Source: Clostridia bacterium
GTDB taxonomy: Bacteria > Bacillota > Clostridia > TANB77 > CAG-465
Length of the DNA: 64,000 bases
Direction of reading: 5' to 3'
NCBI GenBank assembly: GCA_036660635.1
Contig: JAVXAF010000001.1
Location: 17,857 to 81,856, forward strand
Of the stretch, positions 2,393-26,953 are shown in pieces. The notes beneath the pieces are model-generated. The model was not told the origin of the DNA. It made no database searches and was given only the letters and a program-made list of their open reading frames with translations. Made by a program: the position numbers and the translations under genes. Positions within the stretch are counted from its first letter, which is position 1. Every line of letters starts with the position of its first letter.

Positions 2393-3151
2393 ATGAAAAT
2401 CGATTTTCATACACATGGAAAATTATCAAGTAAGTTTCCTTTTGATAGAGAAGAGTTTATGAATAAAATAAATGAAGCCAAGAATGAAGGAATTGATAGT
2501 TTAGCATTAACAGAACATTGTCATGCAATTAATTTTATTGAAATATATAATTTTTTAGCAGATAATTATAAATATATTAATGATTATTATGATGTAGATG
2601 GCTTTAAAGTTTTTACAGGTACAGAAGTAACTACAAATGAGAAACTAGATATTCTCCTTATAGGAAACAGAGAATATATAGTAGAACTAAGTAAGAAAGT
2701 AGAAACTACAAAAGGAAACCAAAAATTTATAGATATAATCGATTTATTTAATATTTTAGATTGTACTAAATTAATAATAATACTTGCTCATCCACTTAGA
2801 AGACATACACTATTTCCTGATATTGATAAAAACATAATAAAAAAAATTGATGCTATAGAATTTAATGCTACAGATTTATATAATAATGGTGTAAGTAATA
2901 TGAAAAATAAAATTGTTGAATTAGGAAAATTATTAAATATTCCAATTACTGGTGGAAGTGATTCACACTACTTTACACAAATTGGTAGTATAAAAAATTG
3001 TTTTAATGTAGAATGTAATACTATTTGTGAGATAAAAGAACAAATTAAAAAGAAAAATTTTATAGTTGAAATATCAGATAATTTGGAGATTAGAGTTAAA
3101 AGTTCAATAATTATAAAAAAACTTATAAAATCATTAGAAATTAATAGTTAA
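2393..3151 (+). CDS. PHP-domain metal-dependent phosphoesterase (histidinol-phosphatase/CpsB-YwqE-like fold)
   Basis: N-terminal IDFHTHGKLS followed by LALTEHCH, with further AHP and GGSDSH motifs typical of PHP domains. Strong RBS gaaggag. Confidence 0.6.
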   Translation: MKIDFHTHGKLSSKFPFDREEFMNKINEAKNEGIDSLALTEHCHAINFIEIYNFLADNYKYINDYYDVDGFKVFTGTEVTTNEKLDILLIGNREYIVELSKKVETTKGNQKFIDIIDLFNILDCTKLIIILAHPLRRHTLFPDIDKNIIKKIDAIEFNATDLYNNGVSNMKNKIVELGKLLNIPITGGSDSHYFTQIGSIKNCFNVECNTICEIKEQIKKKNFIVEISDNLEIRVKSSIIIKKLIKSLEINS

Positions 3152-3363: not shown

Positions 3364-3771
3364 TTATTTTTTTCTCTTTTGCTTTTGCTTTTTAATTACT
3401 TTAATATTATTTGTAAAAATAATTAAAAACATTACTGTTGCAATAGAAGATACTATTACAACTATAGCGCTTCCTAACCCTAATAATACCTGAGTGGAAT
3501 CATTAGCATTAGTTATGTATCTTTCAATAGCGTTTCCACTATTAATAAGATCATTTCGCTGTTTTTTAGCTTTTAAGAAAGCTTCTGAAACAGCTTTTTC
3601 GCCTTCTGGAGAATTTGCTACAAGTTCTCTTGTAGTATTAACATTAGCAGAAATGTGCCAAAGTTCATTTGCAGAACTGGCAATTTCCAAAGAAAAAATA
3701 ACGCTCGTAATACTTAAAACAATAAGCATTACATTAATAACCATTTTAATTTTGATTTTTACTGAAGTCAT
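3364..3771 (-). CDS. Hypothetical small membrane protein with N- and C-terminal TM helices (135 aa); present only in copy B of the duplicated module
   Basis: ORF with SD aagga 7 nt upstream of the ATG. Two hydrophobic helices flank a polar middle, and the C-terminus is K/R-rich. Confidence 0.45.
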   Translation of the reverse strand: MTSVKIKIKMVINVMLIVLSITSVIFSLEIASSANELWHISANVNTTRELVANSPEGEKAVSEAFLKAKKQRNDLINSGNAIERYITNANDSTQVLLGLGSAIVVIVSSIATVMFLIIFTNNIKVIKKQKQKRKK

Positions 3772-3899: not shown

Positions 3900-4925
3900 T
3901 TAAAATGGTGTATTATCTGGTGAAAAGCCTTTGTCATCTAAATAATAAAATTCTGTATTTTCATAGTCAAATAAATACATATTACCTAAAAAGAATCCCT
4001 TTTTCCCCTCATTATGTTCTACGCCATATTCATCAGTATAAATGTCATTAAAACACCAAACAATTTCTCCTTCTTGTATTTTATGCTCTGGATTTGCTAT
4101 TATATTAATATTATCACCTTTTTTTCCTTTAACTATTCCTATTTCTTTTTTTTGATCTCTTGCTGCTTTTACAAAAGCATTGAAAAAAGTCATATCTCCA
4201 AGAGGCTCTATTACAGTTGGCTTAGTTATTCTTTGTCCTTGAAATATATCCTTAAATCCAGAAGTTATTTGACCTGTATACTTATCAACACTTCCATAAA
4301 CATCATTTATACCACATATATAATATTTATTTCCTTTTTGATCAACAAGATAGTCAATAAGTGGATCTGTAGCAATCTCTCGACAAAAGAATACAGAACC
4401 CTCTAGTTGATATTGCCTATCCTCATATTCTTTCAAATCTTTTTCAGGTATAGTATTACCAGGGGTATACTTATTAGGTAACTCCATATCAGCCCACAAC
4501 TCGTCAACATTAGAATATCCATATGCTTCTACTACATTATTAAGTATTTTATATGTTGTTTTTATATCAAGTTCATTTAGAGCTTTTTTTTCATATATAT
4601 CTGTAGCTATTTTAGTTGCTAAGTTAGTAAAGTTAAAATCTGAAATTTTATTATTATTACTATTTATAACTTTTTTTAACGTATCCCCTATAACTGGATC
4701 TTCAAACCAAGTTGCAATTTTACTTTCTTTTTCAAATTTCCAGTTTATTTCTAATAATTGTTCTTGTTCTTTTTCAGTAGCCGTGTTCCATTTTTTTACT
4801 GCCTCATTTGCCTTTGATATTGGATTATTTTTTAAAAATGTAACTATTACAGCAGTGGCTAAAACAATAATAACAATTATCGTTATTACTAAAACTATTA
4901 AAGATATTCCTCTTTTGTTTTTCAT
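3900..4925 (-). CDS. Pilin-like surface protein, paralog B (342 aa)
   Basis: The first ~100 aa and last ~26 aa are identical to paralog A, while the central region is about 60% identical. The upstream ~110 bp promoter/UTR is identical. Confidence 0.7.
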   Translation of the reverse strand: MKNKRGISLIVLVITIIVIIVLATAVIVTFLKNNPISKANEAVKKWNTATEKEQEQLLEINWKFEKESKIATWFEDPVIGDTLKKVINSNNNKISDFNFTNLATKIATDIYEKKALNELDIKTTYKILNNVVEAYGYSNVDELWADMELPNKYTPGNTIPEKDLKEYEDRQYQLEGSVFFCREIATDPLIDYLVDQKGNKYYICGINDVYGSVDKYTGQITSGFKDIFQGQRITKPTVIEPLGDMTFFNAFVKAARDQKKEIGIVKGKKGDNINIIANPEHKIQEGEIVWCFNDIYTDEYGVEHNEGKKGFFLGNMYLFDYENTEFYYLDDKGFSPDNTPF

Positions 4926-4956
4926 ATATTTTCTCCTTACATATGTTATACAAACT

Positions 4957-5012
4957 AGTTGCATAAGTTTCACTTTATATAGTTTAATATATATATGAAA
5001 ATTATGCAACTA
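4957..5012. promoter_or_regulatory. Second copy of the 11-bp inverted repeat bracketing the pilin-like promoter
   Basis: tagttgcataa ... ttatgcaacta, identical to 2093..2149. Confidence 0.5.
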
Positions 5013-5836: not shown

Positions 5837-6367
5837 CTATTTGTCAAGAAACTCTAACAATTTTTGCTCACAATCTGCAAATATGTGTTCTAGTTCATTT
5901 AATTCTGGTTTAGAAAATCTATCCAAAACAAAATCTAATATTTCTTGATTTTCGTGTTTTAGTCCTCCAAGTCCTATTCTTAGTCTTGGAATTTCAGTAG
6001 TCGATAGCATTTGTATAATATTTTTCATACCATTATGTGTACCACCACTCCCATTTTCTCTTATTCTAACTTTTCCAAATTCTATATCAACATCGTCAAA
6101 AACTATAAGTATATCTTTATTTTCAACTTTGTACCATTTTTTTAGTTTTTGTACTGCATTACCACTTAGATTCATATATGTAAGAGGTTTTGCAAATACA
6201 ACTTTTTCTCCATTTATATCAATTTCACATATTAGACTATCATGTTTTTTTCTATCTATTACAAAACCATACTTGCCTTCCATATATTCCAAAAATAGCC
6301 ATCCAGTATTATGTCTTGTTTTTTCGTATTTTTCGCCTGGGTTTCCAAGTCCAACTACTATTTTCAT
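5837..6367 (-). CDS. pth: Peptidyl-tRNA hydrolase
   Basis: MKIVVGLGNPGEKYEKTRHNTGW. The second ATG is chosen as the start because it is preceded by ggaagaagg. Confidence 0.9.
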   Translation of the reverse strand: MKIVVGLGNPGEKYEKTRHNTGWLFLEYMEGKYGFVIDRKKHDSLICEIDINGEKVVFAKPLTYMNLSGNAVQKLKKWYKVENKDILIVFDDVDIEFGKVRIRENGSGGTHNGMKNIIQMLSTTEIPRLRIGLGGLKHENQEILDFVLDRFSKPELNELEHIFADCEQKLLEFLDK

Positions 6368-6537
6368 TTTTTTACCTTCTTCCATTAATAGTGTATATTT
6401 ATTTTATCAGCTTTTTATATTACTACTTTGCTAAAAAAGCTTGAATTTTTCTTTTAATTATAGTATCATTATATATGAAAATTGGTAATATGTCAAACGA
6501 AAAACGTTTGTTATTTACTTGAAAGCGGTGATATTTT

Positions 6538-9036
6538 TTGATAGAAAATTTATTTAATAAATTACATATAAAGACTAAGCCAGATAAAATACTTACTTAT
6601 ATACTATATACCACACTTGCAATAGTTTGCTTTTTTGCAGTTAGTAAAATACTTATATTTATACTTGGAGATTCAAGGCTTACTAAAGCAGTTTCACCAT
6701 ATATAATTTCATTGCTATTTTTAATACCTTATTTGGCTTATTCGTTTTTTGTGAATTCAGGAATTCCAAAAAATGATATGGATAGATTAAAAATGTATAT
6801 TTTTTCATATACAGGCTTAATAATTATACTTTATTATTTGATTTGTAATTGGACAAGTACTGCTGCGTGGTTATTAATAGAAAAAATACCAAATTATACT
6901 GCTGTAATAAAAATGTATCCTCAGTTATTTGCACCAGCTATAAAATCTATTGGAATATTATTTCCTTTTATACTTACATTCCAAGTAGCTGATTATTTTC
7001 TATTTATATTAAGAGATGATGATTATTCTAAAGCAATTGCTGGTTATACAGGACTATCTCTTGTAAAATCTACTAAAGATAAAGGTCCTTTTTCTTGTGA
7101 AACTGTAATTTGTACAGAAAAAGGAACATCTCTTCCTGTTATTGTTCCAGAGAGTAAGCGTTACGAAGCCACTCTTGTTCAAGGTGCTACTGGTACTGGT
7201 AAAACTGCAACTGTTCTTTTACCAATGAGTGCTCTAGATTTGGAGAGAAAATTTTTCTTTAGAGAATTTTCTAAAAAAATCGGATATTCAATGCTAAAAA
7301 AAGGAATCGCATATATGACTGGTCCTTTTAATAATGAATATGTAAATAAAACTTTCACTCTAAACTATTTAAAACCTAGACGTGGAATGGAAGAGCAATT
7401 TTTAAATTGCGTTAAGCCTATGGTTCAATATATTGATAATTCTAGTGGTAAAATAACATATAGAGATATTGGTATAACAGTAATTGAAAATGATGGTGAC
7501 TTTATTTCTAAGTTTATTGGTGTTGCTAATAATTTTGGTATTGATATTTTATCTATTGATCCTGCCGCACCAGAGACTACCCTTAGTATAAATCCATTTG
7601 CAATTCCAGATCCAGCAAAAGTTGCTTCAATTGTTGCCGATGTTTTAAATGCAATGTATGAGAGCACAGGTGGTGGAAAAGCTGGCGATCCATTCTTTAC
7701 TCAAGTAACAATAGATGCGTTCCAAAACTTATCTATACTTCTTAAAGAAATGTTTCCATTGTTGCATAATGGTGAGATTGCTAGTTTAGAAGATATGTTA
7801 GAACTACTTTACAATTTTGATGCTGTTGAAGAAATGACAGAAGAAATGAAGAAAGTTCCAGAATTAGAACAAAAATATAAACTATTAATTAGATACTTTG
7901 AGAAAAATTTCTATAAACCTTCTTTAAATATTAACGGATATGAAATCCCTGGTACTCGTGGTAGTGGTAGAAAAGATACTGAAAAATTTTTATATGGTGC
8001 TATTACTCAACTTAATAACCTAGTTAGACACCCAGGTCTAAAAGCTGCTCTTTGTGGTAAAACTAACATAATCGATTTTGATAAAGCTCTTGATAATGGA
8101 AATATTATTACTGCTTGTTCTAGAAAAGGTGAACTTGGTATTATTCAATCTAAAGCATTTGGTATGTTTTTCATATTGCAATTCCAAGATGCAGTACTTA
8201 GAAGAAAAGGTAATGAAAATTCTAGAACTCCTCATTTTCTATATATTGATGAATTTCCAGAATATATAACAAAAGATATGGAAGTTTTATTTACACTATT
8301 TAGAAAGTATAGATGTGGTGTTACAATAGCAATACAAAACTTATCTCAACTTGAAAAAAGTGGAAAAGATTATTATAGACAAGTTGTACTTGCAAATACA
8401 AAAACACAAATTGTATTTGGTGATACCGTACCAGAAGATAGTGAATACTGGGAAAAAGCTTTTGGAAAAGAGAAAAAGCCAGATGAAACTAATACTTTTG
8501 ATTTAACTGATGGTCAAATGACTAAAAAAACAACTATTAAGATGGAGAAAAAATTAAGAGCAGAATGGTTTAAAGTAGCTGAACAAGGATTTGGAGCTGT
8601 CTTTTTCAAAACGAAAAATTCCTATGGTAAAACTATATTTGGTCAAGGTAAAACATCTTTCTTAGATGGTAAATATATGGAAAAATCTGATTTGTTAATG
8701 TTTAACTTTGAAAAATATATGATGAGCAAACCAGATGAACCTACAATAACAATTAATGATAGTGACAAAGATAGTGACTCTGATAAACTATTTGGCGTAA
8801 ATACTTCTAGCAGATTAAATGAAGAATTAAATAACATTTCTTCAAAAAAAGAACCACCTGTGGCAAATGACGAAACATTTGTAAACACAGTACCAACTAA
8901 TACAATGCCAGATACAAATATAGATGACTTTGAAATTATATTCGATGATGAGCCAAACTTAGAAGATGCAAATGTAGATGGCGGTGCAATTACAGAAACA
9001 TATGAAACCTCAGCAATTAAAAGAAATAAAAAATAA
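6538..9036 (+). CDS. Membrane-anchored P-loop ATPase of the VirD4/TraG/TraD (type IV coupling protein-like) family; 4 predicted N-terminal TM helices, acidic C-terminal tail
   Basis: Walker A TLVQGATGTGKTATVLLPM, Walker B-like FLYIDEFPEY, and a hydrophobic N-terminal ~170 aa. TTG start. No relaxase, VirB4 or other T4SS genes nearby. Confidence 0.6.
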   Translation: MIENLFNKLHIKTKPDKILTYILYTTLAIVCFFAVSKILIFILGDSRLTKAVSPYIISLLFLIPYLAYSFFVNSGIPKNDMDRLKMYIFSYTGLIIILYYLICNWTSTAAWLLIEKIPNYTAVIKMYPQLFAPAIKSIGILFPFILTFQVADYFLFILRDDDYSKAIAGYTGLSLVKSTKDKGPFSCETVICTEKGTSLPVIVPESKRYEATLVQGATGTGKTATVLLPMSALDLERKFFFREFSKKIGYSMLKKGIAYMTGPFNNEYVNKTFTLNYLKPRRGMEEQFLNCVKPMVQYIDNSSGKITYRDIGITVIENDGDFISKFIGVANNFGIDILSIDPAAPETTLSINPFAIPDPAKVASIVADVLNAMYESTGGGKAGDPFFTQVTIDAFQNLSILLKEMFPLLHNGEIASLEDMLELLYNFDAVEEMTEEMKKVPELEQKYKLLIRYFEKNFYKPSLNINGYEIPGTRGSGRKDTEKFLYGAITQLNNLVRHPGLKAALCGKTNIIDFDKALDNGNIITACSRKGELGIIQSKAFGMFFILQFQDAVLRRKGNENSRTPHFLYIDEFPEYITKDMEVLFTLFRKYRCGVTIAIQNLSQLEKSGKDYYRQVVLANTKTQIVFGDTVPEDSEYWEKAFGKEKKPDETNTFDLTDGQMTKKTTIKMEKKLRAEWFKVAEQGFGAVFFKTKNSYGKTIFGQGKTSFLDGKYMEKSDLLMFNFEKYMMSKPDEPTITINDSDKDSDSDKLFGVNTSSRLNEELNNISSKKEPPVANDETFVNTVPTNTMPDTNIDDFEIIFDDEPNLEDANVDGGAITETYETSAIKRNKK

Positions 9037-9083
9037 ATATTAAATTATTATTACAATTTATTTTATACGGATAATCAGTACCA

Positions 9084-9120
9084 AAAAGACATATAGATCT
9101 AATCTATATGTCTTTTTTTG
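9084..9120 (+). terminator. Terminator of the VirD4-like gene
   Basis: aaagacatatagat-ctaat-ctatatgtcttt followed by tttttt. Confidence 0.6.
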
Positions 9121-9269
9121 TTCTATAATAAATGTTGAGGTGTAAAGTTAAATAACTTTGCACTTCAGCATCATTAAATTATTAGGAATTCAAGAGAAAT
9201 TAGTAAAAAATATTCAAAAAGATGAAAATTATATCAATCATTACATCATCTCCTTCACTTTGATTTACG

Positions 9270-9306
9270 TATAAAAATAGAGTATACCTATATGATACAC
9301 TCTATT
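9270..9306 (-). terminator. secA terminator
   Basis: Imperfect hairpin aatagagtatacc / ggtatactctatt (read on the minus strand) followed by a T-run. Confidence 0.45.
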
Positions 9307-9408
9307 CATTTTTGGTTTTATCATCAATTTTATTACTTATTACTTTTAAAGTTTCTAAATATTCTTTTTCTACAGGACTTATTGTTTTAACTTTTCCCTT
9401 ATTTTTTG

Positions 9409-12153
9409 CTACTTTCCACAGCATTGTTTATATTTTTTTCCCGAACCACATGGGCAAGGTTCATTTCTTCCAACTTTTTTTGCGACCTTAATAGGTTCTT
9501 TTTTACCTTCATTGGACCCAGATTCGTTTGTAGTGACATTTCTTATTGTAGTTGTTACATTACCTGTATTTTGTTCATCTTTCTTTCTAACTGCAAATAC
9601 GGCTTTAGTAGCATCTGCTTGAATTGAAGAGATTAGTTCTTCAAACATTTCAAAGCTCTCTATTTTATATGCTTCAATTGGATTAGTTTGACCATATGCT
9701 CTAAGTCCTATTCCATCTTTTAGTTGAGATATTGCATCTATATGATCCATCCATTTTTCATTTACTATATTTAATATTAAATGTCTTTCGATCATATTTA
9801 AAACATCTTCTTTTTTAAGATTTCTAAACTCTTCATGCCTCTTGTTATACACATTTTCAACTTTTTTTATTAATATTTCTTCAATTTCTTCACTATCAAC
9901 TACTTCAATTTCTTCTTTTCTTAGCATTTCTTCTTGTGAAAATAGATTTAAAAGTAAAGCATTTATAGTTGTAAAATCTACATCTTCAATTATTTCAGCT
10001 TTTGAAAAATACTCATCTACAATTTTTCGTATGCATGCATTTGAAAGATTAAATACAATCTTAGAAATATCTTGTGTATTTAAAACTTCTCTTCTTTGAC
10101 CATATATTAATTCTCTTTGCTTATTTATAACATCATCATATTCTAAAACTGATTTTCTTATTGAAAAATTTCGTCCTTCTACTTTACTTTGTGCACTTGA
10201 AATTGCATTACTAAGCATACCTTGTTCTATTGGAACATCTTCTGGTAAACCTAATCTTGCAACCATACTTGCCATTCTATCTGTTCCAAATAGTTTCATC
10301 AAGTCATCATCTAGTGCAATATAAAATCTTGTAGAGCCAGGGTCTCCTTGACGCCCAGCACGTCCTTTTAACTGATTATCTATTCTTCTTGATTCATGAC
10401 GTTCACTACCAATTATTCTCAGCCCACCAGCTTCAACAACTTTTTTTCTATCTTCTTCTAATACACTTTTAAATTTCTTTTCTATTTCTACAATATCTTG
10501 TTTTGCTTTTTTTACTTCTTCATTATTATAGTTTATTGGAGTAATAGCCATTTCAATAACTTCAGGTGTATATCCTTTTTTTGATAATTCTTCTTTTATA
10601 ATATACTCTAAGTTTCCACCTAGCATAATATCCGTTCCACGTCCTGCCATATTAGTTGCTATTGTTATAGCTTTATACTTTCCTGCTTGTGCAATTATTT
10701 CAGCTTCTTTTTCATGGAATTTAGCATTAAGCACCTTATGTGGTATATTCTCTTTTTTTAATAAAGCACTTATTATTTCTGATTTATCAATTGATACTGT
10801 ACCTACTAAAACTGGTTGACCTTTTGCATAACACTCTTTTACATCTTCAACTATTGCGATATATTTTGCTTTTTGAGTTTGATATACAACATCATTGAAA
10901 TCTGTTCTTTGAACATCTTTATTTGTTGGTATTTCCACAACATCAAGTTTATATATTCCTTTAAATTCATCTTCTTCTGTTTTGGCAGTACCTGTCATAC
11001 CCGCAAGTTTAGAATATAGTCTAAAATAGTTTTGAAAAGTAATTGTAGCAAGTGTCTGACTCTCAGATGCAATTTTTACATTTTCCTTTGCTTCTATTGC
11101 TTGATGAAGTCCATCACTATATCTTCTGCCTTGCATAACACGTCCTGTAAACTCGTCAACAATTAAAACTTCTCCATCTTTTACTATATAATCTTTATCT
11201 TTTGCCATTAGCCCATATGCTCTTAAAGCTTGATTAATATGGTGTGACATTGCTAAATTGTCTACATCTGAGAGTGAAGTTATTTCGAATTTTTCTTCTA
11301 CTTTTTTTGTTCCATTCTCAGTAAGTGCAACAGTATGAGCTTTTAGATCTACTATATAATCAAAATTTTCATCTGTCTCATCTACTTCTTTATCATTAGC
11401 CTCAACTATAACCTTTGCTTTTAAAGTTTTTGCTATCTTATTTGCTTTTTCATATAAATCAGTTTGCTTATCAATCATACCTGATATAATAAGAGGAGTA
11501 CGCGCCTCATCAATTAAAATAGAGTCTATTTCATCTACTATAGCATAATTTAGATCTCTTTGAGTCATAGAGTCTTTGCTCATAGCCATATTATCTCTTA
11601 AATAGTCAAAACCAAATTCATTGTTTGTACCGTATGTTATATCGGCAGCATATGCTTCTTTTTTTTGCTCAGGAGACATTCCTGATATTACAAGACCTAC
11701 ACTAAGTCCTAAAAATCTGTATAGCTTACCCATCCAAATACTATCTCTTTTAGCAAGATAATCATTTACTGTTACAACATGTACGCCTTTTCCTGATAGT
11801 GCATTTAGATATACAGGCAAAGTTGCAACTAGAGTTTTTCCTTCACCTGTTTTCATTTCAGCTATTCTACCTTGATGAAGAATAATTCCTCCAATCAATT
11901 GAACTCTAAAATGCTTCATAGATAGTACTCTACTACTTGCTTCAGCTACAACTGCATATGCTTCTGGCAAAATATCATCTAGAGTTTCTCCTGCTTCTAA
12001 TCTTTTTTTAAATTCATTTGTTTTATTTTTTAATTCCTCATCACTAAGGCATTTTATTTTTTCTTCAATTTGTTCTATTTTATCCACTACAGGTATAATT
12101 CTTTTTATTTCTCTTTTGCTATATGATCCAAATATTTTTTCTATAACACTCAT
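9409..12153 (-). CDS. secA: Preprotein translocase ATPase SecA
   Basis: 914 aa with the DEAD-like motor and a C-terminal zinc-binding tail CPCGSGKKYKQCCG. Confidence 0.97.
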   Translation of the reverse strand: MSVIEKIFGSYSKREIKRIIPVVDKIEQIEEKIKCLSDEELKNKTNEFKKRLEAGETLDDILPEAYAVVAEASSRVLSMKHFRVQLIGGIILHQGRIAEMKTGEGKTLVATLPVYLNALSGKGVHVVTVNDYLAKRDSIWMGKLYRFLGLSVGLVISGMSPEQKKEAYAADITYGTNNEFGFDYLRDNMAMSKDSMTQRDLNYAIVDEIDSILIDEARTPLIISGMIDKQTDLYEKANKIAKTLKAKVIVEANDKEVDETDENFDYIVDLKAHTVALTENGTKKVEEKFEITSLSDVDNLAMSHHINQALRAYGLMAKDKDYIVKDGEVLIVDEFTGRVMQGRRYSDGLHQAIEAKENVKIASESQTLATITFQNYFRLYSKLAGMTGTAKTEEDEFKGIYKLDVVEIPTNKDVQRTDFNDVVYQTQKAKYIAIVEDVKECYAKGQPVLVGTVSIDKSEIISALLKKENIPHKVLNAKFHEKEAEIIAQAGKYKAITIATNMAGRGTDIMLGGNLEYIIKEELSKKGYTPEVIEMAITPINYNNEEVKKAKQDIVEIEKKFKSVLEEDRKKVVEAGGLRIIGSERHESRRIDNQLKGRAGRQGDPGSTRFYIALDDDLMKLFGTDRMASMVARLGLPEDVPIEQGMLSNAISSAQSKVEGRNFSIRKSVLEYDDVINKQRELIYGQRREVLNTQDISKIVFNLSNACIRKIVDEYFSKAEIIEDVDFTTINALLLNLFSQEEMLRKEEIEVVDSEEIEEILIKKVENVYNKRHEEFRNLKKEDVLNMIERHLILNIVNEKWMDHIDAISQLKDGIGLRAYGQTNPIEAYKIESFEMFEELISSIQADATKAVFAVRKKDEQNTGNVTTTIRNVTTNESGSNEGKKEPIKVAKKVGRNEPCPCGSGKKYKQCCGK

Positions 12154-13539: not shown

Positions 13540-14871
13540 TTAAGGAATTTGTATAAATGATCCCATATATACATTGATAAGTGGTACCATTACAGTAATC
13601 ATAAAGAATATAAGTGCAATACCAACAAAAATATATGTTATATCTGGAAGCCACTTAACAAATTTAGCAATAGACTCATCTATTTCCATTACAATATATT
13701 CATTTACTTTTTCCATCATCTCGGCAAGATCTGTTTTCATTCCTATATCAATCATTTCTGTAACCATTGGTTTAAATAGCTTTTTTTCTTCAAATGGTAT
13801 CATCCAAGATCCACCTGATAAAGCGTTAACTTTACCTGCTTCAATTACAGATAAGAAATAGTAATTTTTAGTTACATTTTTTGAAATATCTAAACTTTCT
13901 TGTATTCTCATACCATTTTTTAAATTAAGCAACATAGCTTGAAAAAATTTACTAATTGTTATATTAATATTTAATGGTCCTATAACCGGTATTTTCATAA
14001 TAAGTCTATCAAAATTATATTTTCCTTTTGGTGTATTAATATATGCAAAAAATCCTAAAACTAATAAACCTATTGCTGCTACAACAAAATACCAATTTGC
14101 TACAAACCACTTTGCAATATTTAGACCAATCATAGTTGCAGCTGGTATTTTTTCATTAGAGTCAAACATATCATATACTGATTGTAAAAGTGGAACACCA
14201 ATAATAAGCGCTGCAAACATTGCGATTATAATTCCAAAAAATTGTAACAGTCTTGGAATTACTGCAGATGTAATTTTTTTTCTTAATTTTGTAGATGATT
14301 CTACATAATCTCTTGCGTAAAGTAATGCTGTATCTAGAGTTCCAGACTCTTCACCAACTTTTACGAAGTTTATATACATAGTTGGAAATACTCTGGGATA
14401 ATTTTCCATTACAGCGTACATTCTCTCACCTGATTGAACACCAATTAGTATATCCTCAATTACATTTTTAAAATATTTGTTTTCAGTACCATCATGCACA
14501 GCTTCTAAGGCTTGAATATTATTAAATTTAGCTTTTTTCAATATATATATATTATTTGAAAATATTATTAAATCTTTTGCGCTTACATAATTTATAAATG
14601 TAATCCCATTTTTTGCTAAATCTTTAAATTTCAGATTTTTAAAATTAATTTTACCACTTTCTTTAACTCTTTGCTTTTTGTCTTCTTTTATTAATTTTTC
14701 ATAATCTAGTCTTTTATATTTCTTTTTATTATCTTTCATTTTTTCTACAAAAATTGGTTGAGTGCCATCTTTTTTTAAACTATCAATGGCTAGTGACTTA
14801 TTTAATGCCATGATTCTTCCTCTACCTAATTTTCCATCTTGATATATAACTCTATATTTGTAACTTGGCAA
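13540..14871 (-). CDS. pilC: Type IV pilus assembly platform protein PilC (GspF family, two GspF repeats)
   Basis: 443-aa polytopic protein with the architecture and location typical of PilC/GspF. Confidence 0.85.
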   Translation of the reverse strand: MPSYKYRVIYQDGKLGRGRIMALNKSLAIDSLKKDGTQPIFVEKMKDNKKKYKRLDYEKLIKEDKKQRVKESGKINFKNLKFKDLAKNGITFINYVSAKDLIIFSNNIYILKKAKFNNIQALEAVHDGTENKYFKNVIEDILIGVQSGERMYAVMENYPRVFPTMYINFVKVGEESGTLDTALLYARDYVESSTKLRKKITSAVIPRLLQFFGIIIAMFAALIIGVPLLQSVYDMFDSNEKIPAATMIGLNIAKWFVANWYFVVAAIGLLVLGFFAYINTPKGKYNFDRLIMKIPVIGPLNINITISKFFQAMLLNLKNGMRIQESLDISKNVTKNYYFLSVIEAGKVNALSGGSWMIPFEEKKLFKPMVTEMIDIGMKTDLAEMMEKVNEYIVMEIDESIAKFVKWLPDITYIFVGIALIFFMITVMVPLINVYMGSFIQIP

Positions 14872-14891
14872 TTAAATCGCACCTCCTTTTA

Positions 14892-15992
14892 CTAGTCTGA
14901 TAAAGATCCACCCTCGCCTATTATAATACTTTTAATTATTTGAAATCTATCCGGATCTACATTAGCTTTTACTGTAGCTATATCTATAAGTCCTTTTAAA
15001 TATAAATCTGCAAATGAGTTTTCAAAGCTTAAACATCCCTTTTCTCTTTGACTATGAATAGTATCTTCTATATCTGAGACGTTAAACTTTTCTTGTCTCA
15101 TTTGAGCAGCTATTGTATTATTTACTAACATAACTTCTGGAACCATTAAAAGTTCACCTTTTGTGCTAACAACTAATTTTTGTGAAACTACCATTTTTAA
15201 CACTGAAGACACTGCATTTTTTATAGTTTGTTGATCTGAAGGAGAATACATACTTATTATTCTTTCTACTGTCTCACCACAAGAACGTGTATGTAATGTT
15301 CCAATAACAAGGCCACCTGACTCTGCAAGATCAATAGCAACATCCATAGTTTCTTTGTCTCTTATCTCTCCTAAAACAGCTATATCTGCGTCTTCTCTTA
15401 GTAGATTTATTAATCCATCATGGAAACTTACAACATCAGACTCAGCACCAATTTCTTTTTGTATAATTATTGATTTATCTGATACATGCTCATACTCAAC
15501 TGGATCTTCCAAAGTTACTATTTTTTTATTACTTTCTCTGTTTACCTCTTGAACAAATCCATTCATAGTTGTTGATTTACCAGAGTTTACTTTACCAGTA
15601 ACAAGTATAAGGCCATTTGAAATACTTTTCATTCTTTCAATTATTTGTCTAAGTCCCATACTATTTACATCAATATCTCCATTAGGTATTACCCTCATTG
15701 AAAATGTAGGTAGACCCTTAGTAAGTGATATGTTTATTCTAAATCTATGCTCAGAATATGTATATGAAAAGTCAATTTGTTTTTTTATTTTAAAGTTAGA
15801 ACTTAAGGCTGGAAACCTCTTATAGAAAAAGTTTAATATTTCTTCTAGTGAGATATCTGAGAGTGCAAGTCTAGTCTGATCAAAAAACAACTTTTTTTTC
15901 ACTCTAAAAACTGGAGTTTGTCCTGGTGCCAAATGAATATCTGTAGCTCCTAAACTTATTCCTTTATCAAGTATTGAATGTAATAGTTCCAT
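14892..15992 (-). CDS. pilT: Type IV pilus retraction ATPase PilT
   Basis: LVTGKVNSGKSTTM Walker A, GEIRD, and a ~366-aa PilT-size secretion ATPase. Confidence 0.85.
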   Translation of the reverse strand: MELLHSILDKGISLGATDIHLAPGQTPVFRVKKKLFFDQTRLALSDISLEEILNFFYKRFPALSSNFKIKKQIDFSYTYSEHRFRINISLTKGLPTFSMRVIPNGDIDVNSMGLRQIIERMKSISNGLILVTGKVNSGKSTTMNGFVQEVNRESNKKIVTLEDPVEYEHVSDKSIIIQKEIGAESDVVSFHDGLINLLREDADIAVLGEIRDKETMDVAIDLAESGGLVIGTLHTRSCGETVERIISMYSPSDQQTIKNAVSSVLKMVVSQKLVVSTKGELLMVPEVMLVNNTIAAQMRQEKFNVSDIEDTIHSQREKGCLSFENSFADLYLKGLIDIATVKANVDPDRFQIIKSIIIGEGGSLSD

Positions 15993-16033
15993 ATTTTTTC
16001 CCCTTATTTTAATTATATATTATTTTTATCATA

Positions 16034-17671
16034 TTATATTGTTATTTTTCTTTTTAATTCTGGTATTGTAGTAACACCACTTAATACTTTTTTTACACCA
16101 TCTACTACAAGTGGTTTGTATTCTGTATTTTTAATTGCATATTCTTTTAGCTCCAAATTAGGTTTTCCATCTGCTATCATATCTTTCATATAGTCATCTA
16201 TACAAAGTATCTCAAACACGCCTATTCTCTCGTAATATCCTATATCATTGCAATATTTACATCCAACTGGTTCAAATGGATGAGAATTTTTAATGTCAAA
16301 CTCAGTTCCTGTAAGCTTAGTTACTTTATCAATATACTTTAGTTCTTCTTCTGTAAAATCATGAGGTTTTTTACATTTGTCACATAATCTTCTTACAAGC
16401 CTTTGTGATATTGTAGTAACAACACTAGACGATACATCGTAGCTTGATACTCCCATTTTTCTCATTCTTGTTATTGCTTCAATTGCATCAATTGTATGTA
16501 GAGTAGATAATACTAAGTGACCAGTTTGACCTGCTTCTACAGCTGTTTTTGCTGTTTCTTCGTCTCTTATCTCACCTACTAGTATAATATCTGGATCTTG
16601 TCTTAGAACTGTTCTAAGAGCTGATGCAAATGTTATATTAGGGCCTATTTCAACTTGGTTAATACCTGGTATTCTACGTTCAACTGGATTCTCAATTGAA
16701 ATAATATTTATTGATGGCTTGTCTAAGTACTCAAGCACGCTATACAAAGTTGTAGTTTTACCCTCACCTGTTGGAGCACATACTATAATCATACTGTTTC
16801 TTTTATCAAATGCTCTTTCAACAAGCTCGGAATCTTTTTCAAAACCAAGTTCAAATAAATCTCTTGCTTCTGCATTTTTTCTTAAAAGTCTTAATACAAA
16901 TTTTTCTCCAAAAACATTTTTTTGAGTAGATACACGAATACTAAAATTATCATATGTATCAATACTTCCATCTTGATCATATGCAATTTCTTGATGCATA
17001 TTTGATATTGATTTTAACCTTCCTGTTATGATTTCTTGTCTATTTTTAGGAAGTTCAGTTATTGGTATTAGTTCTCCATCAATTCTATATCTTATCCTTA
17101 TTTTTGTATCCATTGGTTCTACATGTATATCTGATGCTCTTTTATCAATTGCGGTCATTATTATATTATCAATAAGCTTAGAAATATCTTTTTCTTCTTT
17201 ATTTACAAATCCTGATTCAACAGTTTTAATACTAGAAATTTGTTTCATTATAGAAGTATATAGAGTTGCATATATTTCCATATTAAATCCTTGATTCATA
17301 AGTAAAAGTTCTATTTCTTTTACTTTACTTGCATTTTGTGGATCTGCAAATGCAACTTTTAGCGTATTTCCATCTAGAGCAAAAGGGAAAGCTTTATAGT
17401 TTATTATTATATCTCTTGGAAGATATTGAACTGGATTTATTTCAACATCATCTTGTAAAAGTGTTGAATTAATTTGTATTTTAAATGAAAGTACTTCAAG
17501 TAACTGCTCTTTATCACACATATCTAATATATCAACAATTTCACCAAACTTCAAATCTTTGTGCTCTTTTTGATATTCAAGAACTCTATCTACTTGACTT
17601 TCACTTAAAAGTCCCCTTTTTATAAACTCAATGCCAATTGGTGTTTTTCTAGATTTAACATTTTCAAACAT
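16034..17671 (-). CDS. pilB: Type IV pilus assembly ATPase PilB (GspE family)
   Basis: VCAPTGEGKTTTLYS, VGEIRDEETA, and the CxxC...CxxC zinc motif of GspE-type ATPases. Confidence 0.9.
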   Translation of the reverse strand: MFENVKSRKTPIGIEFIKRGLLSESQVDRVLEYQKEHKDLKFGEIVDILDMCDKEQLLEVLSFKIQINSTLLQDDVEINPVQYLPRDIIINYKAFPFALDGNTLKVAFADPQNASKVKEIELLLMNQGFNMEIYATLYTSIMKQISSIKTVESGFVNKEEKDISKLIDNIIMTAIDKRASDIHVEPMDTKIRIRYRIDGELIPITELPKNRQEIITGRLKSISNMHQEIAYDQDGSIDTYDNFSIRVSTQKNVFGEKFVLRLLRKNAEARDLFELGFEKDSELVERAFDKRNSMIIVCAPTGEGKTTTLYSVLEYLDKPSINIISIENPVERRIPGINQVEIGPNITFASALRTVLRQDPDIILVGEIRDEETAKTAVEAGQTGHLVLSTLHTIDAIEAITRMRKMGVSSYDVSSSVVTTISQRLVRRLCDKCKKPHDFTEEELKYIDKVTKLTGTEFDIKNSHPFEPVGCKYCNDIGYYERIGVFEILCIDDYMKDMIADGKPNLELKEYAIKNTEYKPLVVDGVKKVLSGVTTIPELKRKITI

Positions 17672-17683
17672 ATAACTTCCTCC

Positions 17684-17905
17684 TTACCTATTTTCATTTA
17701 TTTTAATTATTGTTTTTTCATAAAATCCATTTATATCTTCTACTGATTTACTATATTTTTCTACTATGTTTTTTTCATATTTATTAGTTAGTATGTCAAA
17801 ATGTTCTTGCTCAGAAAAAGTTGACATTGCATATATGGAAAAAGTAACAGAAGTTAAAATAACCAATAATACTCCTGAGCCTTTTAATCTATTTTTTTTA
17901 CTCAT
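17684..17905 (-). CDS. Small pilin-like protein (73 aa; KGSG|VLLVI N-terminus)
   Basis: Short ORF overlapping the upstream gene by 8 nt. Basic residues, then Gly, then a hydrophobic helix. Confidence 0.4.
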   Translation of the reverse strand: MSKKNRLKGSGVLLVILTSVTFSIYAMSTFSEQEHFDILTNKYEKNIVEKYSKSVEDINGFYEKTIIKINENR

Positions 17906-18377
17906 TTAATTCATCTCCTAGTGCAAAGAAAAACTCACAACTTTTTTCTTCCTTATATTTTAAAAACTTGATTTTTGTTGCAAAACTCTTAGATGCACTA
18001 TCTATTTTTGCTAAAGTTTCAGCATTAATTGAAGTAAGATTAGAAGGTAAAATATCAAATTTACACTCTTCTACTGACTTTACTAATACGCCACCATTTT
18101 TAAAAATAGTTTTTTTTGTACTATCATATGTATATATATCATTATTTGAAAAAGTGATTTTATCTGCTGTTGTCTCTACCCACTGACTTGACTTTGCACT
18201 ACTTAATAGATTTACTTGTAGTTTATCTCTTTGCTCATTAATGTATATATTTCCCTTCTCAGTCATAATTTTATAATTCATATTAGCACTCATTGCAACT
18301 GCAAAAGTAGTAAACAAAAAGAATAACACAACATACAAAACTATTGAAACCATTGTAAGACCAGAAGCTTTTTTCAT
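17898..18377 (-). CDS. Minor pilin-like protein (159 aa; KKASG|LTMVS)
   Basis: Class-III-like N-terminus without Glu5, located in the pilus operon. Confidence 0.5.
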   Translation of the reverse strand: MKKASGLTMVSIVLYVVLFFLFTTFAVAMSANMNYKIMTEKGNIYINEQRDKLQVNLLSSAKSSQWVETTADKITFSNNDIYTYDSTKKTIFKNGGVLVKSVEECKFDILPSNLTSINAETLAKIDSASKSFATKIKFLKYKEEKSCEFFFALGDELNE

Positions 18378-18380
18378 ATG

Positions 18381-19178
18381 TTACACCTTCCCTTTTAAAG
18401 TATCTAAACTAAATTCTTTTGGTTTACCATCTACCATATACTCTACCTTAACATTTACTTTTTTTACAATATCTTCTTTTGACAAATCCTCATCACAATA
18501 TTTTGAAACACTAGTGCTTACCATATAAGTTATATTATCCATTTTTTCTGATGTGGTAGACGAATCCAGTAAATCATACTTTGTTGCAAGTGACACTTCA
18601 ATATTTTTTGTAGCTATCGCAATAGCATTGCTCTTAGCAATGTTTATTATAGACTTCTTTTGATAATTTAAACTCATAATATATGAAGATACTAAAAAAA
18701 GTGTAAACATTATCATAGCTACAACAAGCTCAGATAAAAATACTCCGCTCTTTTTACTTAGTTTTTTTTTATTTAGTTCTACTTTTTCTTCTTCACTCAT
18801 TTTAGATTTCATAATTAAAGATCCTGCTATAGTAAATATAACAGCATATACAAGGCATACAACAAGCAAAGTAAAAGTATAACCAAATATAAAATATAGC
18901 AAAACAAATACTATACCATTAGAAAGCTCTAAAAGTATATATCTAGGACTTATTTGAGAACCACAATACTTGCATTTTCCTCCTCTTATAACAAAACTTA
19001 AAATTGGAATTAAATCGAAAAATCCAAGTCTATGTTTACAACTTGTACAATATGATCTCGTAGCCACTATGTCCTGATGTCTTGGAAGTCTATAGGTAGC
19101 AAGTGAGAAGAAACTTCCAAATAAAGTACCAATTACAAATATACAAAATACAACAAATATATTTAAAAATACTAACAC
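18381..19178 (-). CDS. Fusion ORF: PilD N-terminal domain (TM1, 4-Cys loop, TM2-3; no A24 peptidase catalytic domain) fused in frame to a canonical pilin domain (KKSG|VFLSE)
   Basis: The first ~120 aa match the prepilin peptidase N-terminus (CTSCKHRL...GGKCKYCGSQISPRYILLEL). Then come MKSKMSEEEK...KKSGVFLSELVVAMIMFTLF and a soluble pilin-like C-terminus. No other ORF of 60 aa or more in this interval could supply the peptidase domain. Confidence 0.6.
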   Translation of the reverse strand: MLVFLNIFVVFCIFVIGTLFGSFFSLATYRLPRHQDIVATRSYCTSCKHRLGFFDLIPILSFVIRGGKCKYCGSQISPRYILLELSNGIVFVLLYFIFGYTFTLLVVCLVYAVIFTIAGSLIMKSKMSEEEKVELNKKKLSKKSGVFLSELVVAMIMFTLFLVSSYIMSLNYQKKSIINIAKSNAIAIATKNIEVSLATKYDLLDSSTTSEKMDNITYMVSTSVSKYCDEDLSKEDIVKKVNVKVEYMVDGKPKEFSLDTLKGKV

Positions 19179-19189
19179 TAGCTCACCTC

Positions 19190-19260
19190 CATGAATAATA
19201 TTTACATTTTACAATATACTTAAGTATACTCTAAAATATATATATAGTGGTTAGACCATA
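19190..19260 (-). terminator. Possible attenuator/terminator hairpin downstream of the major pilin gene
   Basis: gaccatatacacagcagagtatatatggcc stem, flanked by A/T-rich sequence. Confidence 0.3.
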
Positions 19261-19340
19261 TACACAGCAGAGTATATATGGCCTTTCCATTTAATCGTAT
19301 TTTAAAATTTTAATTTATTTAATTACTACACTCTAGTAGT

Positions 19341-19742
19341 TTATTTTGTGATTGTAAGTGAACCATCTACTACTGTATATGTGGCTACTTTTCCTTTCAT
19401 TTCAGGTAATCCAATCTCTGACCATTCTACTCTTAATACTACTATACCACTTGCAATCAAGTCCGCAGGTAATGCATCTGTTTTTTTATCTGATATATAA
19501 ACATGAGTCTTACCCTCTAGTAGTGACTTATAGTCTGCAGCCTCTGCTTGTTTAGATGCTAAATATAATGATAATGCAGACTTAACTTCAGCCTTATCGT
19601 TAGCTGTTACTGCATCTCCTGCTTTTGCAATTGGATTGTTTCCATTATTAAATGATAGAATAACTGCTGCTGCTAAAATGATTATAACGATTATTGTTAT
19701 AACTAATACGATTAAAGAAATACCTTTTTTGTTTGCTTTCAT
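19341..19742 (-). CDS. Major pilin candidate (133 aa), N-terminus MKANKKG|ISLIVLVITIIVIIILAAAV without Glu5
   Basis: Sits at the pilA position in the locus. Shares its N-terminal 40 aa with the two 340-aa paralogs at the left end of the window. Confidence 0.65.
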   Translation of the reverse strand: MKANKKGISLIVLVITIIVIIILAAAVILSFNNGNNPIAKAGDAVTANDKAEVKSALSLYLASKQAEAADYKSLLEGKTHVYISDKKTDALPADLIASGIVVLRVEWSEIGLPEMKGKVATYTVVDGSLTITK

Positions 19743-19818
19743 AAAAGCTCCTCCTTATAAAAATATATTTATCAAAACAATTATCTTATTTTAATTGACA
19801 AATTGTTTTAACCTAAAG

Positions 19819-20325
19819 TTATTTGCCTATTTTAAGGCAATCTAAATCAGATGTCCACCAAGATGGAGATCCTTCCACTCTAAGATATTGACCATCTTGA
19901 ATATACCATGTGATACCTTCATATTCTGGTAAAGTTACCTTGAGTATTTTTGAAAAATTCTTTGGTAATGCTTCATAGCATACTTTTGAATTTTCTTCTT
20001 TTTTCTTTTCTTTATTTGCTAGAGGAGTAATTTCTTCTTTGCTATTTTCCTCTTTTGTTATTTTTGTTTCTTTTTTGTTTTCATTTGTATTTTCTTTTTT
20101 AGGTGTAACACCTAGTATTATTTCATCTTTGTTGTATATTCCAAAAGTTTCAGAATATGTATTTCCTACATAATATGAAAGCTTTGCTTGAATATCTATT
20201 ACATTTTTTAAGAACTCTGCTTTTGTATGTTCATCTTTACTTCCTACTTTTGTCATTATTAATAGTGTAGCAAGAATAACTAGTATAATAACAAGAATTG
20301 TTATTATTATAGAGTTTTTTTTCAT
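19819..20325 (-). CDS. Pilus-associated membrane-anchored protein with a C-terminal Cys pair (168 aa)
   Basis: N-terminal hydrophobic anchor without Gly. A C...C pair near the C-terminus resembles a pilin D-region. Confidence 0.4.
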   Translation of the reverse strand: MKKNSIIITILVIILVILATLLIMTKVGSKDEHTKAEFLKNVIDIQAKLSYYVGNTYSETFGIYNKDEIILGVTPKKENTNENKKETKITKEENSKEEITPLANKEKKKEENSKVCYEALPKNFSKILKVTLPEYEGITWYIQDGQYLRVEGSPSWWTSDLDCLKIGK

Positions 20326-20337
20326 ATGTCTTCCCCC

Positions 20338-20745
20338 TTATTTATTTGTTGAAGGTGGATTTGGTGTTCCACCATTACTATTTGTTGTTTTATCAGTTGT
20401 TGAAGTAGAGCCTCCGCCGTTTGTGTTGTTATTAGTATTACCACTATTATCATTTCCAGTTTGACTAGAAGCAAACGGATCTGAGTTTCCAGCTTTATAT
20501 TGATTAGTTTTTTTGAAGTTTGTTATATCTTCACTAGTTATTATATATTCATGAATAAGAGCATCAGTTGATATATCTTTTGTACTTACAAATTGGTAAT
20601 CTGATTTTTTTATATTTTCATAGTCTTCTACGTTAGTTTTTGCTATATGTGCTTTTTGAGGCAACATTAACATAAAAGCTATTATTGCAACTGAAAAAAG
20701 TACTAAAACACTCATACTAAACGTTATTGCAAATGTTTTTTTCAT
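20338..20745 (-). CDS. Pilus-assembly-associated membrane protein with a low-complexity N/G/S/T-rich tail (135 aa)
   Basis: TM helix followed by a low-complexity tail; located in the operon. Confidence 0.4.
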   Translation of the reverse strand: MKKTFAITFSMSVLVLFSVAIIAFMLMLPQKAHIAKTNVEDYENIKKSDYQFVSTKDISTDALIHEYIITSEDITNFKKTNQYKAGNSDPFASSQTGNDNSGNTNNNTNGGGSTSTTDKTTNSNGGTPNPPSTNK

Positions 20746-20772
20746 ATTTCAACTTCATCTCCTTTTTATATA

Positions 20773-21507
20773 TTATTTGTTTATTGTTAGATTTTTAACA
20801 TTAAAGGTAGCTTTTATTGTTGTTCCTTCAACATATTCCATAACAATATTATCAAGTTTAAATCTTAATTCTTTATCATTTTCTACTTCAAATACAAAAC
20901 TTGAAACATCTATATAGCTTCCTGATACTTGTATTTTAAATATTGTATCTTCTATATTGTTACCACTTCCAATATTTGGAAACTCTAGACTTGGTAGCTT
21001 TGGTGCTGTCTCTTTTTGAGATGTCTCTTGAGTTGTAGTAGTTGTAGTAGTTGTAGTATCAGAAGTGGCAGCTTTAGTTTCATCTTTTTTATCTATAACA
21101 GTATTTTCTTTTCCACCTGGCTCAACAACTATTATTGATAAATTGTTTACCCTAGCGTAGTTTCCAAGTCTTATCCACATATATTCAATGCTATATTTTT
21201 CTTTTGTAGTTGCATCTTTTATTATATCTATAGTTTCATTGCTTATTGCTTCATATTTTTGTTTTTCTTTTGAGTAATTTAATTTTTCATCTTCTAAACT
21301 TTTTTTTGTAGTTTTATATGAATCTTCTGCCTTTATTAATGTTTCTTCTGCTTGGCTTACTATACTATGATTATCTATTAAAGATTTAATCGAAGAAAAT
21401 TTAATTATTCCTAAATTTACATCTACAAGGCAAAAAAGTATAAATAAACCTAAAGCTACAATACTTATTATTATGAATATTATCAACTTTTTTTTATTAT
21501 TTAACAT
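20773..21507 (-). CDS. pilO: PilO-like pilus assembly protein (TM + coiled coil)
   Basis: Topology and its position after pilMN. Confidence 0.55.
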   Translation of the reverse strand: MLNNKKKLIIFIIISIVALGLFILFCLVDVNLGIIKFSSIKSLIDNHSIVSQAEETLIKAEDSYKTTKKSLEDEKLNYSKEKQKYEAISNETIDIIKDATTKEKYSIEYMWIRLGNYARVNNLSIIVVEPGGKENTVIDKKDETKAATSDTTTTTTTTTQETSQKETAPKLPSLEFPNIGSGNNIEDTIFKIQVSGSYIDVSSFVFEVENDKELRFKLDNIVMEYVEGTTIKATFNVKNLTINK

Positions 21508-24056: not shown

Positions 24057-24064
24057 TTTTTCAC

Positions 24065-25164: not shown

Positions 25165-25174
25165 ATTTCCTCCT

Positions 25175-26350: not shown

Positions 26351-26353
26351 ATT

Positions 26354-26746: not shown

Positions 26747-26941
26747 CTACAACTTAAATACTGTTCTAACAGTTTCAAATAAATCACTTATCTTAGTTAT
26801 TACAAGCATCAGTACAATAATTAAACCTGTAAGAGTCGTCATCATAGCTTGGTCTTCCCTACCTGCTTTTGTAAGTACTTGTGATAAAACTGCAACTAAA
26901 ATTCCAATTCCAGCTATTTTAAATAACAAATCAATATCCAT
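26747..26941 (-). CDS. spoIIIAC: Stage III sporulation protein AC
   Basis: 64-aa, 2-TM protein. Confidence 0.8.
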   Translation of the reverse strand: MDIDLLFKIAGIGILVAVLSQVLTKAGREDQAMMTTLTGLIIVLMLVITKISDLFETVRTVFKL

Positions 26942-26953
26942 GTTTTTCCTCCA

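Follow-up and report, generated by a model that had tools for sequence, protein, structure and literature searches.

A predicted VirD4/TraG-type coupling protein fixed at a housekeeping locus of uncultured Clostridia

Coupling proteins of the VirD4/TraG/TrwB type, such as TrwB of R388 (PDB 1E9S) and Cagbeta (PDB 8DOL), combine a P-loop ATPase core, which carries Walker A and B motifs and an inserted helical domain, with an N-terminal membrane anchor and an acidic, disordered tail. TrwB and VirD4 have the usual two membrane helices, and in the characterised coupling proteins TrwB and TraD contact with the substrate or the relaxosome is made through the all-alpha domain and the C-terminal tail. 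Together with relaxases, these proteins are treated as hallmarks of mobile elements, including by annotation pipelines and mobility predictors. Here we analyse a gene at positions 6538-9036 of the forward strand in a 64-kb stretch of DNA from a Clostridia bacterium (contig JAVXAF010000001.1; the whole stretch is called the window below). Its predicted product of 832 amino acids (aa) has the parts listed above, with four membrane helices in place of two; in contrast to the described systems the gene is chromosomal, vertically inherited and apparently monocistronic, with no transfer genes nearby. We tentatively propose, with a little less than even confidence, that it belongs to a functional, vertically inherited and chromosomally fixed set for DNA processing and coupling that derives from a clostridial conjugation module and whose channel is likely encoded elsewhere.

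A coupling protein accompanied by a Replic_Relax/MOBC protein, again with no adjacent mating-pair genes, is found in CloDF13 (MobB/MobC) and in class 8 of the streptococcal integrative mobilisable elements (PMC5357655). In contrast to these, the present family comes without an integrase or a plasmid backbone, occupies core chromosomal contexts and is deeply conserved; moreover, the coupling protein and its relaxase-family partner (RR) are unlinked in the clade of the window organism, a protein with an S1 domain (S1) is often a third member, and RR is marginal in PF13814. The closest plasmid homologues are those of the Clostridium botulinum pFWSKR40E1-type and Clostridium beijerinckii p1 megaplasmids, with 31-34% identity for the coupling protein and 22-31% for RR and S1. 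The coupling proteins of these megaplasmids are longer (923-1001 aa) and fall into a sister group in our tree, and those of C. botulinum stand beside DUF87/VirB4-like genes, genes resembling pilins of type IV secretion systems (T4SSs), peptidase genes and recombinases. The ATPases Thermus TdtA, Streptomyces TraB and that of the Neisseria gonococcal genetic island are from other, FtsK/HerA-like families or are accompanied by a full T4SS island. They offer an analogy, as chromosomal or stand-alone ATPases of conjugation type that serve DNA export (PMC5365140).

Three Pfam families of coupling proteins match the 832-aa protein above their curated cut-offs, namely T4SS-DNA_transf (PF02534, 37.1 bits against 20.1), TraG-D_C (PF12696, 33.5 bits against 22) and TrwB_AAD_bind (PF10412, 25.0 bits against 20.5), all of them restricted to residues ~543-673. 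The NCBIfam equivalogs (CD1115 family, Bacteroides MobC, TrbC, VirD4 PRK13850 and TraD) stay far below their cut-offs, the best score being 39.7 bits against 250, so that the protein is a divergent coupling protein outside any named subfamily. A sequence search of the PDB with the 832-aa protein returned nothing relevant. An AlphaFold model made with 33 homologues reached a mean pLDDT of 78.9, and its comparison with the PDB by Foldseek placed TrwB (1e9s) on top, with an E-value of 1.4e-11 and a target TM-score of 0.68, ahead of Cagbeta (8dol) and then DndH, HerA, DotL and VirB4. The alignments to TrwB and Cagbeta span ~560 columns, and sequence identity to the solved coupling-protein structures is 12-14%. 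By its Pfam matches and modelled fold, then, the protein is a VirD4/TraG/TrwB-type coupling protein, as the original prediction had proposed from the letters of the DNA. This identity at the level of the family is already present in public annotation, where an identical protein (P0001) from a metagenome-assembled Clostridia genome is named 'TraM recognition domain-containing protein'.

The gene is a single intact open reading frame (ORF) of 832 codons with a TTG start, and the opposite strand is stop-rich throughout. The N-terminal membrane domain (residues ~1-170; 6538-7047, forward strand, as for all parts of the gene) has hydropathy peaks at about residues 26-44, 54-72, 84-104 and 130-158, which coincide with long helices of the AlphaFold model (15-43, 54-74, 80-115 and 128-158). 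The Walker A motif GATGTGKT (residues 216-223; 7183-7206) is followed by the Walker B region FLYIDEFPEY (residues 567-576; 8236-8265), on which the Pfam matches are centred; across the 33 homologues, down to 21% identity, G216 is invariant while K222, T223 and D571 are nearly so. A predicted helical domain (residues ~359-520; 7612-8097), delimited by modelled secondary structure, conservation and the Foldseek alignment, interrupts the ATPase core where coupling proteins have their all-alpha domain. This domain is the most conserved part of the protein among the orthologues of the clade (mean identity 0.88, against ~0.73 for the ATPase core), and the membrane domain is the least conserved folded part (0.46). 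The C-terminal tail (residues 731-832; 8728-9033) is predicted to be disordered (pLDDT < 50) and holds 24 acidic and 10 basic residues, including the acidic stretch DDFEIIFDDEPNLEDANVDGGA at residues 796-817. It also contains two motifs kept among clade orthologues, DDFEIIFDDE (8923-8952) and GGAITETYETSAIK (8980-9021): the ~49 tails show DDFEI(I/V)F and GGAITExYE(T/S)PxIK on either side of a variable linker, followed by a basic end, and some distant relatives have tails that end in short and loosely similar motifs, DAI(V/T)...L and GPI(K/Q)Y. The four N-terminal transmembrane helices, the Walker A motif, the Walker B motif of the DEF type and the acidic tail of the original prediction were thus all recovered from sequence, hydropathy and the AlphaFold model.

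The distribution of the gene was surveyed by a scan of one genome per species, which gave 49 loci with orthologues of 64-73% identity, among them those of Clostridium sp. CAG:465, CAG:921 and CAG:1219. In 48 of these loci the genes for L27, L21 and Pth lie directly upstream and divergent; at the 49th (L017), the contig begins 107 bases before the gene and leaves no room for pth. One contig that bears the identical protein P0001 ends 1.9 kb upstream of the gene. On the other side, secA is found 0.4-7 kb from the gene, and the inserted genes in between differ by species and are mostly convergent, hence the coupling-protein gene appears monocistronic. These insertions include a gene for a 910-aa RCC1-repeat protein (L057) and ORFs of 1476 aa (L042) and 1970 aa (L027). 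Within the clade the identity of the coupling protein (64-73%) lies in the range of that of Pth (51-69%) and SecA (67-77%), and the ratio of nonsynonymous to synonymous substitution rates (dN/dS) was 0.02-0.13 in twelve close pairs, which indicates strong purifying selection and argues against a decaying relic. The GC content at third codon positions (GC3, 0.137) and the codon usage of the gene are indistinguishable from those of the host genes. Of the 3,901 relatives returned by an exhaustive profile-free search, 137 have E-values of 1e-30 or less, and full-length relatives at 29-47% identity are chromosomal as well. Next to two of these, P0123 (37% identity) and P0122 (45%), pth is again found in divergent orientation; P0121 (47%) has mfd-pth 9 kb upstream, and P0124, P0125 and P0129 are set among genes for ribosomal proteins, tRNA synthetases and pseudouridine synthases. 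The coupling-protein gene is a fixed chromosomal gene of a clade of low-GC, spore-forming, uncultured Clostridia, where at least 49 species have it.

Relatives of the coupling protein co-occur and diverge in step with RR, and often also with S1. RR is a protein of 307-340 aa whose gene is convergent and just 3' of the coupling-protein gene in four distant chromosomal lineages (L052, L054, L055 and L063) and in one member of the window clade (L033). Over 10 lineage pairs the identities of the two proteins co-vary, with RR always the more conserved. All four RR proteins scanned match PF13814 (Replic_Relax; best E 4.3e-7), several RR homologues carry precomputed matches to this family, and one is named 'replication-relaxation family protein'. 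PF13814 is a winged-helix and PD-(D/E)XK family (PMC3424549). The MOBC relaxases correspond to this family; they usually come with a VirD4-type coupling protein and, in streptococcal mobilisable elements, are the relaxase class that accompanies such a protein (PMC5357655; PMC12857230). The structure model of RR has a pLDDT of 82.8, and R212 and E253 are the sole residues of its C-terminal domain that are invariant between chromosomal and plasmid forms. The S1 gene precedes that of RR in L033, L055, L063 and CAG:921. Homologues of RR with 74-84% identity to that of L033 are abundant in the clade at unlinked positions, including in Clostridium sp. CAG:921, and in another clade organism, where each of the two proteins is recorded on a contig of 134,019 bp, the coupling-protein and RR genes appear unlinked, at least ~20 kb apart. 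The description of the gene as an orphan therefore stands within the window, where it has no partner; at the level of the family it does not, since relatives keep a MOBC-like partner and S1.

On CAG:921-type contigs, the S1 and RR genes have giant NlpC/P60-glucosaminidase-M23 hydrolase genes on one side and the glycolysis operon on the other. The region directly upstream of S1-RR (positions 1-7800 in L066-L068) encodes an NlpC/P60 protein, a 506-aa protein and a protein of ~1880 aa with NlpC/P60, glucosaminidase and M23 peptidase domains. Gram-positive conjugation systems use multi-domain wall hydrolases of this kind, and these genes might be a remnant of a transfer cluster or an active one. 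At 61495-63227 of the window (reverse strand), 52 kb from the coupling-protein gene, are two adjacent genes for S4-domain pseudouridine synthases, and in L052, L054 and L063 the same pair directly adjoins the block of S1, RR and coupling-protein genes; the pair in the window may be a synteny remnant of the ancestral arrangement.

Besides the C. botulinum and C. beijerinckii plasmids introduced above, Thermoanaerobacterium megaplasmids carry coupling proteins in the same range of identity, and these are the only plasmids in PLSDB with RR homologues. In both Clostridium plasmids (L060-L062) the S1 gene stands directly before that of RR, and the C. botulinum plasmid adds DUF87/VirB4-like, T4SS-pilin-like and C39-peptidase genes. 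MOB-suite labels these plasmids non-mobilizable, as it does the MOBC prototype CloDF13 (L069), and for this reason MOBC-type systems seem to be missed by its mobility typing. Clostridial megaplasmids scored in this way can accordingly be flagged as carrying a coupling protein and RR and, for C. botulinum, also a VirB4-like transfer set. In a neighbour-joining tree the chromosomal forms (725-865 aa), which comprise the window clade and all the pth- or RR-linked forms, separate from a sister group of mobile-element forms (770-1130 aa) made up of the plasmids and L064, a contig that also encodes an integrase, a DnaA_N protein and an actin-like partition protein. TraC-like and VirB4-like genes occur 7-8 kb from the coupling-protein gene of L055, the closest chromosomal outgroup. 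A metagenome scan for VirB4-like relatives returned a single contig, L065 (1-4906; 26.6% GC). On it a 460-aa TraC-like protein and a 676-aa VirB4-like ATPase, 38% and 46% identical to their counterparts in L055, are encoded together with two small membrane proteins; its GC content and divergence would fit an organism of the window clade, though no link between L065 and that clade was found.

We infer that the coupling protein, RR and S1 represent one half, that of DNA processing and coupling, of a clostridial conjugation system and became fixed in the chromosome long ago. In the mechanism that we propose, RR, aided by S1, would bind and nick a specific DNA site, and the coupling protein would form a hexamer in the membrane and recruit the RR-DNA complex via its conserved helical domain and the two motifs of its tail. 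ATP would then drive the DNA towards or across the membrane, where it would most likely enter a T4SS channel encoded elsewhere in the chromosome; for this last step we point to L055, with its channel-type genes 7-8 kb away. Several results weigh against this proposal. VirB4 or other mating-pair-formation genes were found neither in the window nor within ±10 kb of the gene at the 49 clade loci. Apart from L033, neither the window nor any other clade locus contains RR, and within 10 kb of the clade genes no RR, S1, VirB4 or transfer genes were seen apart from the RR and S1 genes of L033. The assignment of RR is itself marginal, with 19.4 bits for the L033-type protein against a PF13814 cut-off of 25.3. 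Its modelled fold resembles FokI, Bax1, Can2, XisH and many winged-helix proteins only weakly (E at or above 8.5e-3), and chromosomal and plasmid RR have no clear PD-(D/E)XK catalytic triad in common; because of these two observations we speak of RR only as a putative relaxase. Repeats resembling an origin of transfer were sought 3' of the gene and between the coupling-protein and RR genes, where only terminator hairpins were found. The tree is a rough one, without support values. Finally, transfer genes are not usually inherited vertically at a core locus over such depth, and this may be a sign of a different, exapted role.

Such a role is the alternative to which we give most weight, even if it is rather unlikely: the coupling protein and RR, with or without S1, would have been kept as a motor after the rest of the conjugation system, mating channel included, was lost, and would now serve the host, for instance in channel-independent DNA export or donation, much like DNA donors with a single ATPase, in sporulation or in genome maintenance. 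In a further reading, the trio would be an ancient set of conjugative origin exapted as a core system, acting either in the donation of chromosomal DNA from a fixed origin or as a channel-free motor for DNA handling, and it would be a vertically inherited function of reduced-genome, spore-forming, uncultured gut Clostridia and no selfish element; we regard this, too, as unlikely, to about the same degree. The missing channel genes just described would fit an exapted motor, as would purifying selection and conservation of a core locus at the level of housekeeping genes over deep divergence. With four membrane helices in place of two, the membrane assembly would be larger, and the many sporulation genes of the window mark the organism as a probable spore-former. 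A stand-alone ATPase that acts in DNA donation has a precedent in Thermus TdtA (PMC5365140). Against such a motor, the closest chromosomal outgroup L055 retains VirB4-like and TraC-like genes nearby, the VirB4-like protein of L065 (46% identity) has diverged to an equal degree with the coupling protein, and the S1-RR genes of CAG:921 follow giant cell-wall hydrolase genes of the kind found with Gram-positive T4SSs. The promoter, moreover, looks to be of the sigma-A type and not sporulation-specific. A coupling protein might also serve protein export and recruit effectors or toxins via its tail motifs, as VirD4 and DotL do, a role that would suit the two conserved short linear motifs and a highly variable downstream region that often encodes very large proteins such as the three named above. 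We consider this improbable: the only co-diverging partners are the DNA-binding or nuclease-like RR and the nucleic-acid-binding S1, and the genes downstream, being convergent and unconserved, form no operon with the coupling-protein gene.

The remaining explanations fare worse than a chromosomal set for DNA processing and coupling. A partnership with the type IV pilus machinery had been suggested on grounds of proximity, since 4.5-14 kb downstream there are pilC, pilT, pilB, pilD and pilin-like genes, which are near in some other members of the clade as well. Within the clade, however, insertions interrupt the interval between gene and pilus cluster and its length varies, the strands and the transcription units are not the same, and no pilus genes are near the homologues of six distant chromosomal lineages (L050, L052, L054, L055, L063 and L070), which makes such a link highly doubtful. 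It is equally hard to credit that the protein is a housekeeping chromosome translocase of the FtsK/SpoIIIE or HerA type that merely resembles a coupling protein. The ATPase superfamily is shared, FtsK also has four N-terminal membrane helices, and a core context in a spore-former would be apt; but neither FtsK_SpoIIIE nor HerA/DUF87 matches the 832-aa protein in Pfam at E up to 1, FtsK structures are absent from the top 50 Foldseek matches, HerA structures rank well under TrwB and Cagbeta (E 5e-7 to 2e-5), and the partner is a relaxase-family protein. The assignment to a housekeeping ATPase family that the original prediction had named as its refutation thus did not occur. The least probable explanation of all is an integrative conjugative or mobilisable element that is still mobile or has recently decayed. 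The family is otherwise typical of mobile elements, and its sister group sits on plasmids and on an integrase-bearing contig. Yet the same locus is occupied in 48 of 49 species loci and again in lineages at 37-45% identity, dN/dS is about 0.05, and the 64-kb window contains no integrase, tRNA gene or compositional anomaly; the fixed locus, the host-like GC and GC3 and the missing integrase and tRNA genes largely refute such an element, and the relic of the original prediction is not supported as simple decay. A role in anti-phage defence seems unlikely because PADLOC returned as its sole match a weak one to mad8 (4.3e-9, 34 bits), of generic P-loop similarity, with no other MADS genes nearby.

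In the window clade and its relatives the coupling protein keeps a housekeeping address down to 37% identity and diverges in step with a relaxase-family partner, in contrast to the common treatment of both proteins as signs of a mobile element. This pattern points to the long-term domestication, in uncultured Clostridia, of the DNA-processing half of a Gram-positive conjugation system. The clade has been recovered largely from gut and faecal metagenomes. If the set drives the exchange of chromosomal DNA, it would bear on recombination in uncultured gut bacteria with reduced genomes; if it needs no channel, it would represent a new use of the coupling-protein motor. Our literature searches gave no account of deep vertical inheritance of a clostridial coupling protein at the pth locus, of co-diverging MOBC-like and S1 partners, or of the dispersal of the set in the window clade.

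The TTG start, also part of the original prediction, is borne out by the clade. An alignment of the 40 nucleotides upstream of the gene at 47 loci shows a conserved Shine-Dalgarno sequence, GAAAGCGGTGAT, ahead of the TTG (6521-6540, forward strand), and the form GAAAG(C/T)GGTGAT stands 5-7 nt 5' of the TTG in essentially all orthologues. TTG is the start in 38 of 50 extracted clade genes, and at least some of the others are start-calling artefacts; on this conservation the start codon is genuine. Between pth and the coupling-protein gene, a consensus scan and the clade alignment delimit a divergent promoter-like region (6441-6496, both strands). It consists of TTGAAT-17-TATCAT, predicted to face the coupling-protein gene (6441-6469, forward strand), and of a perfect TTGACA-17-TATAAT, predicted to face pth (6496-6468, reverse strand). 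The -10 boxes of the two elements overlap, and the blocks CTTGAA..TTTATAGTAT..ATTATATATGAA..ATATGTCAA are kept across the clade alignment. Overlapping, conserved promoters suggest mutually exclusive or coupled transcription of pth and the coupling-protein gene. Expression of the latter is probably low and constitutive, because its putative promoter is a weak one of the sigma-A type that is overlapped by the perfect pth promoter, and because the gene starts with TTG. Downstream, a hairpin resembling an intrinsic terminator, with a perfect 16-bp stem followed by a T-run, lies at 9083-9117 on the forward strand. The interval from 9037 to 9408 is 372 bp of non-coding DNA with this hairpin and a second one (9132-9171).

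The immediate neighbours in the window are pth (5837-6385, reverse strand), upstream and divergent, with L21 and L27 beyond it, and secA (9409-12153, reverse strand), downstream and convergent, so the housekeeping context of the original prediction was correct. Its statement that relaxase, VirB4, mating-pair-formation and integrase genes are lacking nearby was also upheld. A Pfam scan of every window ORF of at least 100 aa that is not nested inside a longer gene, several of which are matchless, gave no match to any of these families, and a tblastn search of the window with RR, S1, VirB4 and other transfer proteins of C. botulinum or L055 found none of them. The 64-kb window contains no tRNA gene and no Rfam match, and its GC content is flat at ~0.27. 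Both the comparison of GC and codon bias and the survey of the position in related genomes, which had been proposed as checks alongside Pfam searches and a phylogeny, thus speak for a resident gene, and the phylogeny places it in a chromosomal group apart from the mobile one.

The rest of the window is made up of housekeeping and sporulation genes. The full spoIIIA operon (AA to AH) is at 23454-28386, and further genes for sporulation or germination are spoIIP, spoVAC/AD/AE, gpr, yunB, sipL, ctpB and a spoIIAB-like gene, from which this low-GC, uncultured organism appears to be a spore-former. Genes related to DNA and the chromosome are those of an SNF2 helicase, pcrA, holA, topA, scpA, recA and recX; other housekeeping genes are ddl, trmFO, divIVA, L13/S9 and the two pseudouridine synthases. 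At the left end, the match of the ORF at 423-965 to an RNase J-type enzyme covers only the RMMBL domain and the last part of the Beta-Casp domain, which suggests a C-terminal fragment or a gene with a miscalled start; relatives match this ORF at just 23-43% identity. The stretch between this fragment and L27 is filled by two paralogous predicted membrane proteins of ~365 aa (1052-2146 and 3900-5009, both on the reverse strand), which flank a PHP-domain gene (2393-3151), and by a 135-aa ORF (3364-3771). The two paralogues have no significant Pfam family and share identical weak matches. The stretch has no counterpart in the 49 related loci and is a variable insertion beside the conserved block. 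Past secA, a DUF1980 gene is followed by the type IV pilus cluster, of which the Pfam scan identified pilC, pilT, pilB and pilD (13540-19178). The cluster looks complete and extends over 13540-23141, with pilC, pilT, pilB, a 159-aa ORF, pilD, small ORFs and a gene for a 544-aa PilN-domain protein. The small unassigned ORFs within it may be pilins; published work on pilins of TANB77 concerns a Tad/Cpa-type pilus, which is a different system (PMC11680825).

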